Under the pieces are notes generated by a model that did not search any database, had not been told where the DNA came from, and worked only from the letters and a program-made list of their open reading frames with translations. A program made the translations under genes and the position numbers. This document shows positions 1 to 9,816 of a DNA stretch of 15,752 nucleotides, piece after piece. Positions within the stretch are counted from its first letter, which is position 1; each line of letters opens with the position of its first letter. This DNA is from Opitutia bacterium (lineage in GTDB: Bacteria; Verrucomicrobiota; Verrucomicrobiia; Opitutales; T3Sed10-336): positions 1 to 15,752 of the forward strand of contig JBJHCF010000069.1 of assembly GCA_050506795.1 (NCBI GenBank). The letters are read 5' to 3'.

Positions 1-202
1 CGTCTGTGTGGCGTGCGGACGGTTGGTCCGGGAAAGGAAGACTCCGGCTTGAAGCACGGAGCTACGGGGAAGCTCGGATGCCGTAGCGCCCTGCTTCAGC
101 GGGCGTCTGTGTGGCGTGCGGACGGTTGGTCCGGGAAAGGAAGACTCCGGCTTGAAGCACGGAGCTACGGGGAAGCTCGGATGCCGTAGCGCCCTGCTTC
201 AG
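1..202. repeat. 103-bp-period tandem array of paired, oppositely oriented GTAG-REP hairpins (BIME-like); runs off the left edge
   Basis: 1-99 is repeated exactly at 104-202. Each unit has REP-A on the minus strand (40-65, 143-168; GTAG-CTCCG-T-GC-TTCAA-GC-CGGAG-TC) and REP-B on the plus strand (83-107; GTAG-CGCCC-T-GC-TTCA-GC-GGGCG-TC). The second REP-B (186-202) is interrupted by the IS. A GTAG foot followed by an imperfect hairpin is the established REP signature. Confidence 0.9.
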
Positions 203-229
203 ACAGGCAATAAGAGCAAGTGGAAAAAT

Positions 230-1435
230 TCAGACATTTTCGCTTCTAAATTCGAAGGGTTTTTCGTCGATGAGCACGGAAACGATGCGACGTAGGTTCT
301 TGCGCATTAGGTCGATGACAACCTTCTTGTGGTGATCGCCTTCGGCTTTCTTTTTTTGATAGTAAGCGCGCAATTGAGGGTCGTGGTTGATAGAACAGAA
401 GCTGGCTTGATAAAGGGCTGTGCGGGCAGCTTCTATGCCTCGCTTGGAAAGCTTTACCTTGCCCTTGTGTGTTCCCGATTCGCGTCTTCTGGGATCAAAG
501 CCGAAGAGAGCCTGTATTTTGCGGACGGTTTTCTTTTTAGTGGGCGCCCATTCCTTGATGTCGGGCGGAAGGAACGCCGCCAGGATTGGCGTGGAGACTT
601 TGCCAAAGCCGGGACAGGAGCGGATGAGCGCCTCGGTTTTGCGCAGGGAGGGATCTTTTTGGGCGGCCTCTTTAATGGCGTGATCAAGAGCGTCGATCTG
701 GGCCGAGAGACTCTCAATGGCTTCGAGCATGTGCACGAGCGCTTGCGAGCAGGCTGTGGCAATACTTTCGGGCGTTATCGAGGCGGCGGCGGCTTTTTGG
801 AGCTCTTTCGCCTTTGCTCCCAGGCTTTCATGAAGAGCTTCCTCGGAAATCCCGGCTATTTTCCCCGGGGTCGGAGCTTTTCGTAAAAGGCCTCGAAACG
901 CGGTGCTGGTGAGCTTGAAACCGAGCGGTTTGGCCTCGGGAAAAACCAGATCGAGGAGGTCTCCGGCGGACTTGAGCAAATTGGTTCGCTGAATGCGAAT
1001 GGCGGTACGCGAACTCACCAGAGTTTGGAGTTGGATTTTGTTGTTTTGCCCGCGGTAAGAAAAGCGTACCAGTGCCTGAGCATGGATACGTCCGATCTCG
1101 CAGAGGGTGTGAGCGTCGATCCGGTCATCCTTATTGTCGCGAATCGCATTGTCAGAAGAATGCAAGCGTTTGGTCATTAAAGGATTAATTGAATAAACCT
1201 TGAATCCTTCCTCATGGAGGCGTTCGCACCAGGGCAAATGATGCCGCCCGGTGGCCTCAATGACCACAGAAGTACGTTCGGGAACGAGCCCATGGCTCGA
1301 ACAGAGCTCTCGGAAGGCGCGCCAGCCTTCCATCCGCTTGACGGCCCGGCCTTCGGCCAGTTTGGCGCCGGACTCGTTTTGGATTTGATAATAGATGCCT
1401 TTGCCGTCAGTATCGATACCGATAATCCAGTTCAT
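230..1435 (-). CDS. IS110-family transposase/recombinase (DEDD RuvC-like N-terminal domain + Transposase_20-type C-terminal domain), 401 aa
   Basis: Motifs IIGID (D), VVIEATG (E), INP, KDDRIDA (D,D), CPGFG, FGFDPRRRESG (conserved Ser of the ESG motif), LSKRG...RTALY. Strong SD AAGGAGG (1441-1447 minus) 5 nt before the ATG. Confidence 0.96.
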   Translation of the reverse strand: MNWIIGIDTDGKGIYYQIQNESGAKLAEGRAVKRMEGWRAFRELCSSHGLVPERTSVVIEATGRHHLPWCERLHEEGFKVYSINPLMTKRLHSSDNAIRDNKDDRIDAHTLCEIGRIHAQALVRFSYRGQNNKIQLQTLVSSRTAIRIQRTNLLKSAGDLLDLVFPEAKPLGFKLTSTAFRGLLRKAPTPGKIAGISEEALHESLGAKAKELQKAAAASITPESIATACSQALVHMLEAIESLSAQIDALDHAIKEAAQKDPSLRKTEALIRSCPGFGKVSTPILAAFLPPDIKEWAPTKKKTVRKIQALFGFDPRRRESGTHKGKVKLSKRGIEAARTALYQASFCSINHDPQLRAYYQKKKAEGDHHKKVVIDLMRKNLRRIVSVLIDEKPFEFRSENV

Positions 1436-1448
1436 TTTATCCTCCTTC

Positions 1449-1710
1449 GGTGGGACAGGTTAACAAGGGATCCGGCGGCTTAGGCTTATGGCCAAGTAAA
1501 CTCAGCACGAGTGTCAGGCGATAAAAACACGCCGGATAAAGGGACTCCCTCCGGGTTTTGTCTAAGGCCAACAGACGTGCTGTTCGGGCGAAACTAAAAC
1601 ACCAGAGGGAAAAACCTTTTAGCCTGTCCCACCCCTTCAAGGCAAGGGCCGGACTTCGCCGAGCTACACCCCTGCGGGGCTCCACTCGTCCGGCCCTCCA
1701 CCTCATTGTG
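1449..1710 (-). ncRNA. Putative IS110 bridge RNA (5' hairpin + target-binding loop + donor-binding loop)
   Basis: Stems seen by eye (plus-strand coordinates): 1645-1654/1688-1697 (10 bp perfect); 1449-1459/1623-1633 (11 bp perfect closing stem); 1546-1554/1602-1610 (9 bp, one G-U); 1470-1477/1530-1537 (8 bp perfect); inner hairpin AACAG/CTGTT. Loop segments match the target (CGCCCG) and donor (GCCTG, CATAAG). Ends are approximate and expression is inferred. Confidence 0.8.
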
Positions 1711-1716
1711 GGGGGA

Positions 1717-1722
1717 ACCTTA
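1717..1722 (-). promoter_or_regulatory. -10 half (TAAGGT) of a putative circle-junction promoter; -35 half (TTGCTC) at 214-219
   Basis: Joining the two ends over one CT core gives TTGCTC-ttattgcctgtCTtatg (17 nt)-TAAGGT, directed into the non-coding end. Junction promoters are established for IS110 circles. Confidence 0.6.
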
Positions 1723-1726
1723 CATA

Positions 1727-1833
1727 AGCGGGCGTCTGTGTGGCGTGCGGACGGTTGGTCCGGGAAAAGGACTCCGGCTTGAAGCACGGAGCTACGGGGA
1801 GTGCAGAACTCGTAGGGTCCTGTTTTAGCCCGC
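1727..1833. repeat. Continuation of the REP array after the IS: rest of REP-B (1729-1736), linker, REP-A (1770-1795 minus), degenerate REP-B (1812-1833)
   Basis: 1733-1800 is nearly identical to 1-70, with a small difference in the GGGAAAGGAAG tract. GTAGGGTCCTGTTTTAGCCCGC matches REP-B at 16/22 positions and has similar CTAC-to-GTAG spacing (16 vs 17 nt). Confidence 0.85.
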
Positions 1834-1919
1834 AACCCTTTTGGCCGGATACTGTCGGAGAGATCGGGTATTTTCTTTTCAGCCAGCCACTTTTCCCTCA
1901 TACAAGGGGAACCACTCCT

Positions 1920-3803
1920 ATGTTCATCTTTAAACTCCATAAACTTGGCAAGATCCTTCGGGGCAAGGCCAACGCCTTCCAACTCATTTCCGCGGCGGTT
2001 CTCGGTTCCCTCCTTGGATTTATGCCCGGCTTCAGCCAGGCCTGGGGATTGATTGCCGCGTTGCTGCTGGTGTTGATCATTCTCAACGCCAATTTGTTTT
2101 TCGCCGGTCTGATCACCTTGCTGGCCAAAGGGGTGTCGCTCCTGATCACCCCGGTGAGTTTTGCCGTGGGCCGATTTCTTCTGGAAGGCCCGACCGAAGG
2201 GCTGTTCCGTTCCATGGTCAACGCTCCGGTTCTGGCGTTTTTCGGTTTGGAATATTATGTGGTGACCGGCGGACTCCTGGTCGGCCTGATCTTCGGCCTG
2301 ATTGTCGGCGTGGGCACGGTTAAAGCGCTGAAATCCTACTGGCGGAAGATGGCCCACGCCCAGAAGGATTCCGAACGCTATAAAAAATGGTCGTCCAAAA
2401 GATGGGTCAAAGTGGTTTCCTGGATTTTCCTGGGACCGGCCAAAAAAGACACCTACGAGGACACTTTGGCCAAGGGAAATATCGGCAATCCTATTCGCAT
2501 GCTGGGCGTGGTTTTCGCCGTCCTGGTCGCAGTAGTGGCGTTTTCATTGAATCTGCTTTTTGCCGATGAAATCGTGACCCAGGCGGTGCGCGGCGGTCTG
2601 GAACGGGCCAATGGCGCCACCGTCAATCTCGAGCGAGGCGAATTGAGTTTTCGCGAGGGCCGCCTGACTCTGAACAATCTGGCGATGGCCGACCCCGATG
2701 ACCTGGGTACGGATCTCTTTCGGGCGGCGTTGATCCAAGCCGACATCGACACCCGCGACCTCCTGCGCAAACGCTGGACCATCAACCGCCTGGTCATCAG
2801 CGAGGGCCGGCAGGGTGAGCCTCGAACCTTTCCCGGGATACTGACCCAACCACGGCCGCGTCCGGCTCCCGATCCCGATCTGGACCCGGATGAGAAGACG
2901 ATCGAGGACTATTTGCGGGACGCTCAAAAATGGCGGGAACGCCTTGCCCAGGTGCGTCATTGGCTGGATGTGCTTTCCGGGCCGGACGACGAGGAGTTGG
3001 AGCTTCCTCCCGATGTCGATCCGGAGGACGTCCCTATGCGCGAAACGCGGCGGGAGCGCATTGCCCGCGAAATTCGTGAAAAAGGTTACGATCAGGTGAT
3101 CGCCCGTCATTTGATCGAGGACAGTCCGCGCCTCCTGATTAGGGATATGACCGCCGAGCGGGTGCGGACGCGTCACCTGGAAGACGATACCCTCGACATT
3201 ACCGGCCAAAACCTCTCCACCAATCCCCGGTTGGTGCCGGAAGCACCGCGCCTCTCCATCCGTTCCAGCAGCGGGGACCTGGTTTTCGACCTGGCGTTGG
3301 GTGCCGCCGCCGCCCTGCGGGCCTCCAACGACCTGGAACTCGTGTACCGGAACCTGCCTTCCGATTTGATCGGCCGCCAACTGGCCGTTTCGGGCGAATC
3401 GCCGGTTTCCGGCGGCACCTTCGACTTTGAGACATCGGGACGTTTGAGCAAAATCGACAGCGACCTTCCGGTGCGGGTCACCCTCAAAAACACCACCCTG
3501 ACCATTCCCGGGGTGGGGCAAACCGACATCGACGAACTGACCCTGCCCATCGGCATCCGGGGAGCGATTGACAATCCTAGAATTTCCTTCGACGACCGCG
3601 ACCTGGCCGACGCTCTCGCCGCCGCCGGTCGCCGCGAGCTGGAAAGCCGTCTCCGGCAGGAATTGTCCGACCGTATCGGCGGTGACGTGGAGGACCGGGT
3701 GCGCGACGAAATCAGGGACCGGGTCGGTGAGGAAACCGAGGAACGGGTACGCGACGAAGTTGAAGAGCGCGGCCGTGACCTCCTCGATCGATTCCGGCGT
3801 TGA
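1920..3803 (+). CDS. Membrane protein: TIGR03546/DUF2062-like N-terminal domain fused to a TIGR03545/AsmA-like domain, ~627 aa
   Basis: Start moved to ATG 1920 (SD-like AAGGGGA at 1904-1910) because the longer ORF begins inside the REP array. Hydrophobic N-terminus (QLISAAVLGSLLGFMP...LNAN...MVNAPVLAFFGLEYYVVTGGLLVGL), then IRMLG...GLERANGATVNL...LAMADPDD...DLLRKRWTINRLVI, which resembles AsmA-like N-termini. Family assignment is from recall. Confidence 0.7.
   Translation: MFIFKLHKLGKILRGKANAFQLISAAVLGSLLGFMPGFSQAWGLIAALLLVLIILNANLFFAGLITLLAKGVSLLITPVSFAVGRFLLEGPTEGLFRSMVNAPVLAFFGLEYYVVTGGLLVGLIFGLIVGVGTVKALKSYWRKMAHAQKDSERYKKWSSKRWVKVVSWIFLGPAKKDTYEDTLAKGNIGNPIRMLGVVFAVLVAVVAFSLNLLFADEIVTQAVRGGLERANGATVNLERGELSFREGRLTLNNLAMADPDDLGTDLFRAALIQADIDTRDLLRKRWTINRLVISEGRQGEPRTFPGILTQPRPRPAPDPDLDPDEKTIEDYLRDAQKWRERLAQVRHWLDVLSGPDDEELELPPDVDPEDVPMRETRRERIAREIREKGYDQVIARHLIEDSPRLLIRDMTAERVRTRHLEDDTLDITGQNLSTNPRLVPEAPRLSIRSSSGDLVFDLALGAAAALRASNDLELVYRNLPSDLIGRQLAVSGESPVSGGTFDFETSGRLSKIDSDLPVRVTLKNTTLTIPGVGQTDIDELTLPIGIRGAIDNPRISFDDRDLADALAAAGRRELESRLRQELSDRIGGDVEDRVRDEIRDRVGEETEERVRDEVEERGRDLLDRFRR
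3669..3764 (+). repeat. Imperfect 48-nt (16-aa) tandem duplication in the charged C-terminal tail
   Basis: DRIGGDVEDRVRDEIR / DRVGEETEERVRDEVE; DNA GAGGACCGGGTGCGCGACGAA vs GAGGAACGGGTACGCGACGAA. Confidence 0.7.
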
Positions 3804-6347: not shown

Positions 6348-6794
6348 ATGTCGAAGCCATTCACCTTCACTCGCCGGGTGCAGTTCGCCGAGACCGACAT
6401 GGCGGGGATTGTCCATTTTTCGGCGTTTTTCCGTTACATGGAGGAAGCGGAAACCGCGTTCTGGCGATCGTTGGGGTTGTCGATGATCCTGCGGGAAAAG
6501 GGTCTGGAAATTGGTTGGCCTAAGGTTCGGGCGGTTTGTGATTACCGGCACCCCGTAAAATTCGAGGACCTCCTGGAGGTCGATTTGACCGTGGCTGAGA
6601 TCGGAACGCGGTCGTTGCGATTCGGTTTCGTCTTTCGTTGTCCGGAAGGTTCCGGCGAGGATGGGGTGGATGAGGTGGCCCGGGGCGAAATGACCGTGGT
6701 TTGCCTGCCGCTGAATTTTTCGGACAAACCGCGCGCCATGGTTATTCCCGAGGCGATTCGCGTCAAATTGGAGGCGGCGCGTGATGGGGGTTGA
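6348..6794 (+). CDS. Acyl-CoA thioesterase, hot-dog fold (4HBT/YbgC family), ~148 aa
   Basis: [26 protein letters not shown]...[15 protein letters not shown]...IGTRSL; start placed at ATG 6348. Confidence 0.9.
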
Positions 6795-6841
6795 CGTTGC
6801 GGGTGCCGGGGGTCCGTCGCCGGGGCGATCGGCCGAAACCG

Positions 6842-7609
6842 TCAGTGCCCGAGGGCGCCGAAACGCAGCACGGTGTGGCTGGCGCGTCCGGATCGCAGGC
6901 AGGTCAGGTCGGTGAGCGCCTCCTGGGCGCTTTCCTGCGGCAGTTGAAAGTGGAAGCGAAACCGGTCGTCCAAGGTGCGCCGGTAAAGACTTCCCAGGTT
7001 CATACGGCCGGGGCGGGTGCGTTCGATTCCGCTTTCGCGGGCGTAGGGAAACGGGAAGTTGATGTTGTGCACTTCCGTTTCCCGGTTGTCTCCCCCGGCC
7101 AATTGACCGGCGATTTCGGCGGCGGTCTCGCAGGAGGCTTGCAGGGTGAGTTCGGTTTCGGGGGCCAGGGGAAGCGGCCGGGATTTGAGGAGCTGGAACT
7201 GTTCCGGAGGCAGTTGCAGGGAGAACGCCGCCGCCGGGAATCCGAGAAGGGCGCCCTCCAGTGCCGCCGCTACGGTGCCGGAACTGAGAATCAACGGCAG
7301 ACTGGCGTTGAAGCCAATGTTGATGCCGGATACCACCAGGTCGGGGTTGCGCGGCAGGAGGTGCCCGACGGCGAGGTTGACGCAATCGGCCGGAGTACCC
7401 TCCACCCGCCAGGCGGCACAGGGAAACCCCTCGGCTTCTTCCAGCCGGATGTCCCGGTGCCGGCTCATCGCCTTGCCGATCCAGCTTTGTTCGCCTGCCG
7501 GGGCGGCTACATAGACTTCGGCCTGCCGATCGAGTGCGGAAACCAGCGCGCGCAGGAAGGGGGCGTCAATGCCGTCATCATTGCTGACCAGAATAAGCGG
7601 GCGAACCAT
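6842..7609 (-). CDS. surE: 5'/3'-nucleotidase SurE, 255 aa
   Basis: ILVSNDDG, VAAPAGEQS, GTPADCV, DLVVSGINIGFN, SSGTVAAALEG motifs. Confidence 0.96.
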   Translation of the reverse strand: MVRPLILVSNDDGIDAPFLRALVSALDRQAEVYVAAPAGEQSWIGKAMSRHRDIRLEEAEGFPCAAWRVEGTPADCVNLAVGHLLPRNPDLVVSGINIGFNASLPLILSSGTVAAALEGALLGFPAAAFSLQLPPEQFQLLKSRPLPLAPETELTLQASCETAAEIAGQLAGGDNRETEVHNINFPFPYARESGIERTRPGRMNLGSLYRRTLDDRFRFHFQLPQESAQEALTDLTCLRSGRASHTVLRFGALGH

Positions 7610-7626
7610 GGGAAAAGGGTGTACGC

Positions 7627-8334
7627 CTATTTGATAAATACGGCGATGGCGGTGGCGTTGTCACGGCCTCCGCGTTCGTTTGCCAGGGCGATCAGCTTAC
7701 TCACGGCTTCCTCCGGCGTATCGGCCTGTTGAATACTCTCGTGAATCTCGTCCGGGGTAATGGAAAGGGTTACGCCGTCGCTGCAAAAAAGGAGCCGGTC
7801 GCCGGCGGAAATCGGAGCGGAATAGGTGTCCACCATCAGATCTTCGATTTGGCCGAGGCAGCGGGTCAAAACGTGGCTGTGGCGGCGGGGTATGGGAATG
7901 CGGGGATTGAAGTCCGGCCGGTTGCGAATCTCCTGCTCCAGGGTGTGATTCATGGTGAGCTGTTTCCAGTCGTCCTTTCGGAAGTTATAGATCGCGGTGT
8001 CCCCCACGTGGGCAATCCGGAGTTGATCTCCCTCGATCATCCCCACGGTGAGAGTGGTTCCGATACCCGTTTCGGGACTCAGTTGTTGCCCGAGGCGTTG
8101 GATTTCGGTGTTGATTCGTTGAAAGAGCGCGGTCAGGTCGCCCGGCCCGTTGTCGTCCACCAGGGCCTCCTCCAGCATGGTGATGGCTTTCGAGCTGGCC
8201 AGCGCGCCGTCGGGCAGGCCGCCCAGGCCGTCGGCCACCGCGAAGACGGCGCGATAGCGGTCGACCAGAAAGGAGTCCTCGTTGCGTCGGCGCGTGCGGC
8301 CGACGTCGCTTATCCCGTGACTTTCAAATTGCAT
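7627..8334 (-). CDS. PP2C/PPM-family Ser/Thr protein phosphatase (PrpC/Stp1-like), 235 aa
   Basis: SDVGRTRRRNEDS, AVADGLGG, GTTLT, AHVGDT, HVLTRCLG, LFCSDGV, GGRDNATA. Only 17 bp from surE, so probably co-transcribed. Confidence 0.95.
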   Translation of the reverse strand: MQFESHGISDVGRTRRRNEDSFLVDRYRAVFAVADGLGGLPDGALASSKAITMLEEALVDDNGPGDLTALFQRINTEIQRLGQQLSPETGIGTTLTVGMIEGDQLRIAHVGDTAIYNFRKDDWKQLTMNHTLEQEIRNRPDFNPRIPIPRRHSHVLTRCLGQIEDLMVDTYSAPISAGDRLLFCSDGVTLSITPDEIHESIQQADTPEEAVSKLIALANERGGRDNATAIAVFIK

Positions 8335-8490
8335 GAAGAGATCCCGTTGAGATGCCGGCGGAAAGCCGGTTGGCGAAAGACGTCATGGGATCGTTATGGA
8401 GTCGCATTGTCAATGGCTTGCGAAGGAGAAATCTCCGGAAAGAGCACGGCGGTGGGACCCCGGGAGCGAATTACGAGGCGATTGGCGACG

Positions 8491-9816
8491 TTAATCGTCC
8501 TGGGTGGTCTCGCCGATCGCCACAAATCGGTATTCTTGTTCGAACTGGAAGACCACTCCGTCGTCCGCAACCTGGTGCAGGGTGACCCCTTCGAATTCAT
8601 CGCCGACCTGGAGGAGTTCCCCGTTGACCACGGCTTCGTTGGTGGAGAGTAGGACCGTTTGCACATGCAGCACGGGCCAGGACGGAGGGGCGGGCTGGGT
8701 TTCCGGTTCCGCGGTCACGGCTCCCGGTTGGGCGGGAACGTCGGCGGGTTCCGGTTGCGGTGGCGGAGCGGTTTCGGCGATGATGGTTTCGCCCATTTGC
8801 CGCGCGTCGTCGACGGAGATGGTGGCGGTCAGGGTGACCGTGTCGTCGCGTGCTTCGGCACGCAGGTTTTGCATGAAACCGGGAGCGCCGTCGCCCTGCG
8901 CGGCCGCCATCATTTGCAACATCGGAACGATGCTTTCGTTCAGGAATTCCTGTACGGTCCGGGCGTCTTCGGCGGAACCGAATGCCAGGGCCAACTGCAC
9001 CGCCAGGGACTGGTTGGCGCGAAGGCTGATGCCGGTGCGGTGCAGGGATACGACGGCATCACCCGCTGGCCCGAGCGGGAAGGGGGCGGCTCCGATCAAA
9101 TCCCGCAGGCCGGCCTGCATTGCGGGCGAGAGGACTACCACCAGCCAGCCGTGACTCTCTGCGATCATGGAGTCCTTGCCGGCGAGAATACCGTCGGGAA
9201 GGGTTTTCTCCCGTCTCGATTCGAGTTTGGTAATGGTGTTCCGCAGGGCGTCCCCGGCGCCGAAGTAGAGAGTCGCGCCGCCGTCCTCGCGTTCGAAAAC
9301 TGTCAATTGGACTGTGAGGCCGAGATCGGGAACCGGGAATTCCAGGATATCCCGGTTGCTCAACGTGCTCTGGCGGACAGTGGCGTTGTTGTCCAGATTG
9401 GCTCGCAGGGCCGATTCGATCTGCGGCAAGGTCACTATGGTGGAAAGCCTCACCGCCGCGGAAAGGCCCGCCTGGGCGAACCTTTCGCCCTGCAGCGCGG
9501 CGAGATCGCGAATGGCGATCAATCCTTCGATGACGTCGTCTTCGTTCAGGCCCAAGCTCAGGAGGAAATCGGAGAATTCGTCGGCATAAAGATCTTCCGC
9601 TTCGCTGTCCGCCATGGCCCGGCCGAAGGCGGACTGGTTCATCGCCTGGAAATTGACATAAAGAACGGCGTCCGCTTCCTCCGGGACGGCGGCTTCCACC
9701 GCCCCTTCGGATCCTTTCCCGAAGTAGAGGTAGAGTCCGTATCCGAGGGCTCCCATGGCCACCAGAAAAAGAATTAGAAGGATGCTGTCCTGCAGCTTGT
9801 GCTTTCGTGTCTTCAT
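8491..9816 (-). CDS. Hypothetical bitopic membrane protein with Pro-rich linker and small C-terminal beta domain, ~441 aa
   Basis: Basic N-terminus MKTRKHK plus a TM helix, an acidic extracytoplasmic domain, APPPQPEP...PAPPSWP linker, and terminal AVVNGELLQVGDEFEGVTLHQVADDGVVF. Start uncertain (9816, or upstream at 9876). Confidence 0.75.
   Translation of the reverse strand: MKTRKHKLQDSILLILFLVAMGALGYGLYLYFGKGSEGAVEAAVPEEADAVLYVNFQAMNQSAFGRAMADSEAEDLYADEFSDFLLSLGLNEDDVIEGLIAIRDLAALQGERFAQAGLSAAVRLSTIVTLPQIESALRANLDNNATVRQSTLSNRDILEFPVPDLGLTVQLTVFEREDGGATLYFGAGDALRNTITKLESRREKTLPDGILAGKDSMIAESHGWLVVVLSPAMQAGLRDLIGAAPFPLGPAGDAVVSLHRTGISLRANQSLAVQLALAFGSAEDARTVQEFLNESIVPMLQMMAAAQGDGAPGFMQNLRAEARDDTVTLTATISVDDARQMGETIIAETAPPPQPEPADVPAQPGAVTAEPETQPAPPSWPVLHVQTVLLSTNEAVVNGELLQVGDEFEGVTLHQVADDGVVFQFEQEYRFVAIGETTQDD

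Follow-up and report, generated by a model that had tools for sequence, protein, structure and literature searches.

Does the insertion sequence at the beginning of a contig from an Opitutia bacterium (Verrucomicrobiota; GenBank assembly GCA_050506795.1, contig JBJHCF010000069.1) encode, beside its recombinase, an RNA that reads both the element's ends and the site in which it is inserted? The window, by which we mean the whole stretch of 15,752 nucleotides (nt) that was analysed, opens with a short tandem repeat array that is interrupted by this element, and an original prediction, made from the letters of the window, had read its non-coding left end as a bridge-RNA-like guide RNA of an IS110 recombinase. 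The bridge-RNA mechanism has reportedly been known since 2024, and thousands of such RNAs are said to have been predicted in that year. Our analysis indicates that positions 203-1726, on the minus strand, are very probably an intact insertion sequence of the IS110 group with a bridge-RNA gene in its left end. The domains of the protein, the layout of the element, a left guide that tracks the flank and stems with compensatory changes all support the interpretation as an RNA-guided recombinase with its bridge RNA. The coordinates of the features are collected in Table 1, and positions are those of the window unless a relative is named.

Table 1. Features of the insertion sequence, its predicted bridge RNA and its target repeats, in window coordinates
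Feature	Position	Strand	Remarks
Whole IS110-group element with both CT cores	201..1728	minus	body 203-1726; 1526 bp core to core
Recombinase (transposase) gene	230..1435	minus	401 aa; intact DEDD RuvC-like and Ser domains (open reading frame, Pfam, IS621 alignment)
Right end	203..229	minus	27 nt; ends TTATTGCCTGT ahead of the core, the left-donor sequence
Left end	1436..1726	minus	291 nt; predicted to encode the bridge RNA; first bases TATGTAAGG, the right-donor sequence
5' hairpin	1645..1697	minus	10-bp basal stem (1688-1697 with 1645-1654) and inner helices
Closing stem, 5' arm	1623..1633	minus	pairs with 1449-1459, 11 bp
Target-binding stem-loop	1545..1611	minus	outer stem 1602-1611 with 1545-1554, and continuing helices
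Left target guide	1585..1590	minus	CGCCCG, in sense with the 6 nt left of the core; AA next, where the target has CT
Inner hairpin AACAG/CUGUU	1570..1584	minus	between the two target guides; stem 1580-1584 with 1570-1574
Right target guide	1562..1568	minus	GCCUUAG (DNA GCCTTAG), antisense to CT-GAAGC; 5 Watson-Crick pairs, 1 G-U, 1 C-A mismatch
Putative target-loop handshake guide	1560..1561	minus	AC, complementary to donor GT directly left of the core
Donor-binding stem-loop	1470..1537	minus	
Left donor guide	1513..1524	minus	UUAUCGCCUGAC, 10/12 identical to TTATTGCCTGTC
Right donor guide	1485..1490	minus	CAUAAG, exact reverse complement of CT-TATG
Putative donor-loop handshake guide	1484..1484	minus	C, complementary to the target G preceding the core
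Closing stem, 3' arm	1449..1459	minus	3 nt short of the ribosome-binding site
Two 103-nt REP-like tandem repeat units with target hairpin	1..202		exact units at 1-99 and 104-202
Uninterrupted 13-nt target CGCCCG-CT-GAAGC	93..105	minus	1 of 66 exact genomic copies
Partial third repeat unit beyond the element	1729..1800		

Element ends and recombinase

The limits of the element were set by comparing the interrupted with the uninterrupted units of the repeat. At the left junction the sequence is GACGCCCG-CT-TATGTAAGG, at the right junction it is TTATTGCCTGT-CT-GAAGC, and the corresponding empty site, GACGCCCG-CT-GAAGC, is found in the adjoining repeat unit. The target and donor junctions drawn in the original prediction were recovered in this way, with a small correction of their coordinates that places the minus-strand CT cores at 1728-1727 and 202-201 and the body of the element between them. 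The ends of the relatives are the same as those of the window element (CT-TATGTAAG and GCCTGT-CT), and GCCTGTCT was found at the right end in all 15 elements examined. The anatomy is that of the IS110 group, with a left end much longer than the right end, CT at both junctions and no long terminal inverted repeats, a repeat search of the window having reported no long inverted repeat of the element ends. The element is present in a single copy in the 4.94-Mb assembly.

The recombinase gene starts at 1433-1435, behind a ribosome-binding site, GGAGG, at 1441-1445. The encoded protein matches PF01548 with 69 bits (cut-off 29) and PF02371 with 55.4 bits (cut-off 21.3), and was aligned to the IS621 recombinase (chain 8wt6_A) with an E-value of 2.2e-17. 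In this alignment E60, D104, D107, and S320, the serine of an ESG motif, coincide with catalytic residues of IS621 (D11, E60, D102, D105, and S241, with a presumed offset of two residues in the chain numbering), and D8 was placed by motif only. No variation was seen in D8, E60, and D104 across 46 homologues, while D107 and S320 are near-invariant (at least 90%), which bears out the claim that the DEDD and serine residues are intact.

Relatives of the recombinase are sparse in sequenced genomes. Five of 61 related genomes gave a match at E ≤ 1e-20, namely the genome of the window itself, two with full-length relatives (30-36% identity) and two with C-terminal fragments without a left end, and in a sample of 401 genomes of the phylum the only match at E ≤ 1e-60 was again the window's own genome. 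A scan of reference-genome contigs gave 22 loci, with near-full-length matches 26-28% identical and short segments up to 49%, none of which was used, and a protein-profile scan of viral sequences found no relative. In a large protein collection, 90 of the 7,999 scored entries were relatives at E ≤ 1e-30; the nearest is 62% identical and most lie on contigs of 1.4-2 kb. A profile of 46 of these proteins led to 17 metagenome loci. The relatives used are L029 (75% protein identity), L030-L035 (57-61%), L038 (41%), and L040-L042 (35%). L037, L039, and the same-genus fragment L026 contribute a right flank only, and L038 is without its left terminus; L036 and L043-L045 were dropped as too short or too distant, and L025, L027, and L028 were left out of the analysis.

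Fold of the left end and its guide segments

For the left end (1436-1727) the folding energy is -130.1 kcal/mol, compared with -101.6 kcal/mol on average for its shuffled versions (z = -5.35, with none of 200 shuffles as good), and the fold gives a 5' hairpin and two loops inside a closing stem, as the original prediction had proposed for this region. The bridge RNA predicted from this fold comprises about 250 structured nt, in which the 5' hairpin is followed by the target stem-loop and then by the donor stem-loop, both loops being enclosed by the 11-bp helix. The inner hairpin, the closing stem and the 10-bp stem of the 5' hairpin all lie where they had first been drawn.

The conservation of these helices was assessed in an alignment of eight left ends, those of the window and of seven relatives (57-75% protein identity), with a mean column identity of 70%. 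Paired bases are found in 93.5% of the 462 alignment cells, a share that falls to 31-53% if the partners are displaced by 1-3 columns. Compensatory changes are shown by 18 of the 64 pairs, against 1-5 with displaced partners; the observed pairing, the compensatory counts and the covariation score were each matched in none of 500 shuffles. The stems are thus kept in the homologues. In the basal stem of the 5' hairpin five of nine pairs have changed on both sides, with 98.3% of the cells paired, and compensatory pairs were also found in the closing stem (three of nine), the outer stem of the target stem-loop (four of 14) and the basal stem of the donor stem-loop (four of 12), whose apical hairpin adds one pair that is compensatory in three sequences. 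In L040, a distant relative, the minimum free energy (MFE) fold has in the place of the closing stem another one, GGGGUAGUG with CACUACCCC, which differs in sequence, and the MFE fold of L042 shows such a stem in part.

The inner hairpin, which lies between the two target guides, varies at one pair of its ACRG/CYGU stem. Read by eye in seven relatives, this pair is A-U in three, G-C in two and G-U in two, and on the uncorrected alignment A2 it is AU in three, GC in two, GU in one and another combination in one; between the window and L029 the pair 1581/1573 changes in a compensatory manner from A-U to G-C. An alternative inner helix proposed by RNAalifold, GUCUG with YAGAC, would bury the right target guide, and was rejected because the C that keeps ACGG/CCGU paired in L029 and L035 breaks GUCUG/YAGAC, leaving two C-A cells (columns 169/179).

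The four guide segments that had been picked out on the minus strand, CGCCCG, GCCTTAG, TTATCGCCTGAC, and CATAAG, were all confirmed in place. To set their matches against chance, the 291-nt left end was shuffled 20,000 times by mononucleotides, and an equal or better match anywhere was counted. The 6-mer match of the left target guide arises in 10.6% of the shuffles, the 10-of-12 match of the left donor guide in 1.0%, and CATAAG in 4.1%, whereas a 6-of-7 pairing to CTGAAGC, with G-U allowed, arises in 94.5%, and for this reason the right target guide is not significant in the window taken alone. All four matches occur jointly in one of the 20,000 shuffles.

More telling is the behaviour of the left target guide among the relatives, for which the 14 nt ahead of the inner hairpin were compared, in nine elements, with the 12 bases of the left flank plus CT. 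The longest sense matches of the guide region to the element's own flank are 6, 6, 7, 4, 6, 3, 6, 5, and 5 nt, and their sum, 48, was reached in 2 of 100,000 random re-pairings of the nine elements, a permutation figure that overstates independence because the elements are kin; with L042 dropped, whose target is the same as that of L041, the sum was reached in 4 of 40,320 exact re-pairings. The sister pair is a particularly clear case, since the guides of the window and L029 differ at 1589 and 1586 exactly as their targets, CGCCCG and CTCCGG, do, and the guide of L029, followed by AA as in the window, matches its own, different target perfectly over 6 nt. The left target guide thus covaries with the insertion site, as the original prediction would have it. 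The target stem-loop accounts for 12 of the 20 differences between the left ends of the window and L029, the donor stem-loop for two, and both strands of the donor loop are invariant in the eight aligned sequences, so that a variable first loop is joined to a conserved second loop. As a side observation, these two left ends are 93.3% identical, compared with 75% for the recombinases, the RNA gene being better conserved than the protein gene.

On the right side of the target the guide also changes with the site. In the close clade GCCUYAG faces CT-RAAGC, and Y can pair with R in eight of eight cases (three C:G, three U:A, and two U-G), and in the distant clade GGAG faces CT-CC in all four relatives. 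The pairing described earlier, with five Watson-Crick pairs, one G-U pair and one mismatch, is present in the window, and the guide covaries with positions +1 and +2 of the right target in the relatives.

Both donor guides are likewise as first described, with 10 of 12 identities on the left and six of six complementary bases on the right. The two mismatched positions of the left donor guide are the same in all relatives, and AUAAG of the right donor guide is invariant in eight of eight aligned sequences. In viral contigs we found 24 exact matches to a 16-mer of the donor loop, which we regard as chance because none of the 24 also has the right-donor-guide motif. In the supplements of Durrant et al., as far as these are readable, the 11-mer of the donor loop is absent and the 14-mer of the right donor guide occurs three times, in other orthologues.

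Next to the right guides lie the candidate handshake bases. In IS621, according to the accessible part of Hiraizumi 2024 (PMC11208158), the two bases that follow each right guide on its 3' side pair, after strand exchange, with positions 6-7 of the non-cognate DNA, and pairing of these bases with the cognate DNA blocks exchange. Here AG-AC is found in 12 of 12 target loops and GT-CT at 15 of 15 right ends, and no pairing of AC is possible with the CG of the window's own target. In the donor loops AUAAG-C is found in 12 of 12, and the last base of the left flank is G in all nine elements that have a left flank. Judged from these sequences, both handshake positions would fit the IS621 model, and the conserved A opposite left-donor position 7 agrees with the published tolerance of mismatches there. 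By analogy with IS621, the recombinase would excise the element as a circle, joining TTATTGCCTGT-CT-TATGTAAGG, and after exchange of the top strand AC (1560-1561) would pair with donor GT and C (1484) with the target G beside the core. From the same analogy we infer that the left end would be transcribed, that the recombinase would bind the RNA, which strand each guide would pair, and that the system would be active.

Comparison with known systems and competing explanations

The sections of Durrant 2024 (PMC11208160) that deal with IS621 of E. coli describe a bridge RNA of 177 nt with a 5' stem-loop, a target loop and a donor loop in this order, left guides in sense and right guides antisense, a variable first and a conserved second loop, a core that is paired by all four guides, this pairing being strongly preferred, tolerance of mismatches at left-donor position 7, and targets that include repetitive extragenic palindromic (REP) elements. 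Set beside this account, the window element has in common with IS621 the DEDD and serine recombinase, the CT core, and the long left and short right ends; the 5' stem-loop, variable target loop and conserved donor loop follow in the same order; the 5' strands of the loops are in the sense of the left DNA half and the 3' strands antisense to the core plus the right half; and the handshake bases directly 3' of each right guide, the REP-type target and the tolerance at left-donor position 7 are shared as well. The layout of the IS621 type that had been assumed for this RNA is therefore borne out as far as that account goes.

The differences lie in several places. The similarity of the proteins is detectable per domain only (at the E-value given above), the left end has 291 nt compared with 191 nt in IS621, and the structured RNA about 250 nt compared with 177 nt. 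This agrees with the earlier statement that the RNA is longer than that of IS621, and puts it at the top of the range of 150-250 nt given in the same sections of Durrant 2024, not outside it. The 11-bp closing helix around both loops sets the RNA of the window apart from that of IS621 as described there, and so do a left target guide of 6 nt that is followed by AA and not by the core CU, a left donor guide without pairing to the core T, and a right target guide of 7 nt, discontiguous and with a conserved internal C-A mismatch, compared with 4 nt in IS621.

A second comparison is offered by ISPpu10 of Pseudomonas putida, for which the available part of the report presents the target stem-loop as a specificity element (bioRxiv 10.64898/2026.03.19.712850). 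A GC-rich stem-loop by a base-paired target site is common to both, all nine targets reconstructed here folding in this way, but in the clade of the window the core lies inside the hairpin, at the boundary of stem and loop (GC-TRAA-GC), and not 3' of a 5' extension as described for ISPpu10. The nine hairpins, at or beside the core, are GC-rich and give weak z-scores of -0.8 to -1.9 against mononucleotide shuffles (the row for L031 with a wrong right end), so that the folding is no more than suggestive.

Several observations weigh against a functional bridge-RNA element. Some concern the guides themselves. Pairing of the core by all four guides is not found, since only the two right guides put AG opposite CT; after the left target guide the window and L029 have AA, seven of ten elements have C and a non-U base, and only L031 has CU, and the left donor guide is followed by C, A, or G opposite the core C and then by A, with at most the core C paired. 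The base opposite the core C is, judging from this variation, probably unpaired. The C-A mismatch of the right target guide at position +3 is conserved, and the guide appears to be supported by its position and by the relatives, its match in the window itself being at chance level. The donor guides give no covariation, because guides and donor ends are both invariant in the set of relatives, and two of the nine elements, L032 and L035, match their present flank poorly (4 and 3 nt). To these may be added the kinship of the elements that enter the permutation figure, as noted above, and the lack of any match in Rfam 15 at E up to 1 in window 1-2400.

Others concern expression and movement. None of the sequencing runs listed is recorded as RNA, and a scan for sigma-70 promoters gave two weak hits (1463-1434 and 1416-1388), located at the beginning of the gene or just within it, and none upstream of the RNA. 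The joined ends of the window element would offer only TCCACT-18-TATGTA, with a weak -35-like hexamer (3/6), and the element is present in one copy despite 66 exact targets. A joint expected of a circle junction was not found in the contigs of four DNA runs. As an observation on the relatives, the joined ends of L040 (1640-1690), L041 (1930-1975), L042 (1715-1760), and L031 (2700-2745) would create TTGACT-17/18-TATGTA across the core, the sort of junction promoter that has been described for IS110 circles.

The single copy, the AA opposite the CT core, where IS621 strongly prefers pairing on both strands (PMC11208160, in the sections mentioned), and the weak hexamer of the joined ends would all suit a genuine IS110 element with a bridge-RNA gene whose copy in this genome is weakly active or inactive, a single relic without left core pairing and with a right mismatch. 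We consider this unlikely. The reading frame and the catalytic residues are intact, the ends of the element are identical to those of its relatives, and L029 shares the AA and yet has a perfect 6-nt match to its own target. In addition, soda-lake metagenome contigs about 95% identical to the element cover 244-1734 and match its left flank only through CGGGCG (1729-1734), after which they diverge; by this comparison they are read as a separate insertion, at a different site that shares exactly the 6 nt of the guide (CGCCCG-CT). The contig of the element has a sequencing depth of 17.8, compared with 14.2 for the flanking contig, a weak indication that consists of one figure per contig and comes from a run that is possibly the source of the assembly.

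Far less probable is a reading in which the left end does no more than supply the recombinase mRNA with a structured 5' leader that controls its translation or stability, and in which the guide-like matches are repeats of the ends that the protein binds as DNA. In its favour, the closing stem reaches with its 3' arm to within 3 nt of the ribosome-binding site, the donor-like segments, invariant like the ends, would on their own fit protein-binding repeats equally well, and the want of transcript evidence suits a leader too. However, DNA sites for a protein would not change with the flank, as the left target guide does, and the compensatory changes in 18 of 64 pairs point to selection on the folded strand. 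A pairing of the terminus of the left end with the start-codon region, as would protect against read-through, was tried as a candidate and rejected, the test giving no consistent signal (z < -2 in one of nine elements and positive z in three of nine), and this too speaks against a leader. Finally, an element of the IS1111 type, with a seekRNA in its right end and an unrelated structure in its left end, can be dismissed as extremely improbable: the recombinase family is the same, but only 27 nt lie between stop codon and core, whereas IS1111 elements are described as having the guide RNA in a long right end, a short left end and subterminal inverted repeats of 7-17 bp (PMC11208160, in the part consulted here), and all guide matches are in the left end. 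What the window element does have in common with the IS1111 group, as treated in that part, is, besides the recombinase family, the guide logic, multi-loop RNA structures being reported there as well.

The IS110-group element with a bridge RNA in its left end is thus the reading that we retain, and a further question is whether its RNA differs in kind from those already described. The element and its relatives (35-75% protein identity) might form a distinct structural subclass of IS110-group bridge RNAs, in which a long-range helix would close both loops into one multi-branch junction by the ribosome-binding site, the bottom-strand core would be read by neither left guide, the right target guide would be fixed on the loop of a GC-TRAA-GC hairpin, and only the guide of about 6 nt would be re-written; we put this forward tentatively and regard it as rather doubtful. 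If it were true, sister elements would hop between two hairpin variants of one REP unit, CGCCCG here and CTCCGG in L029. Durrant et al. (PMC11208160) already reported, in the sections available, diverse bridge-RNA structures across the IS110 family, and the element is for this reason taken as an example of known bridge-RNA systems, which leaves the known picture of these RNAs unchanged. Of the rules derived from IS621, the element keeps the handshake positions as well as the mismatch tolerance at left-donor position 7, and pairing of the core by the left guides is possibly dispensable.

In our view, the element is of practical interest as well. Bridge recombinases are compact RNA-programmable tools for the insertion, inversion and excision of DNA, and each well-delimited orthologue enlarges the pool for engineering; for IS621, recombination has reportedly been shown with the RNA supplied in trans and a minimal donor of about 22 bp. 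The natural record of the window element is unusually complete, with known ends, an adjoining empty site, 66 identical targets and a sister in which two guide substitutions track two target substitutions.

Target repeats and neighbouring genes

The 13-mer of the target, CGCCCGCTGAAGC, occurs exactly 66 times in the 4.94-Mb genome, compared with about 0.15 occurrences expected by arithmetic from the genome size. They belong to tandem REP-like arrays whose repeat unit measures about 91-105 nt; at least 30 contigs contain such arrays, which are often located at a contig end. Each unit contains two inverted, related hairpins with GC-T(G/A)AA-GC at the top, followed by a short variable stretch. Hairpin A, CGCCCG-CT-GAAGCAGGGCG, is the target of the window element, and hairpin B, CTCCGG-CT-GAAGCACGGAG, is represented by 37 exact 13-mers.

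The relative L029 (1-22 and 1543-1570) is inserted in hairpin B (CTCCGG-CT-RAAGCACGGAGCTAC) of this repeat family, and for L026 (780-810), the same-genus fragment, the right flank likewise points to a hairpin B target. Since both sit in its second hairpin, the repeat family is taken to be common to these hosts, and the sister elements appear, from their guides and flanks, to be tuned to the two hairpin types that a single repeat contains.

Immediately past the insertion lies a gene on the plus strand (1740-3803) with a likely start near 1921, for a product of about 630-690 aa whose N-terminus is hydrophobic and for which Pfam gives no match at E ≤ 1e-5; the reading frames 6791-7732, 7729-8652, and 8659-9777 are likewise without such a match. 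The REP-like arrays recur throughout the genome (G000), for example at 55453-55960 of contig C27 and 27563-27995 of contig C23, and many contigs end inside them.

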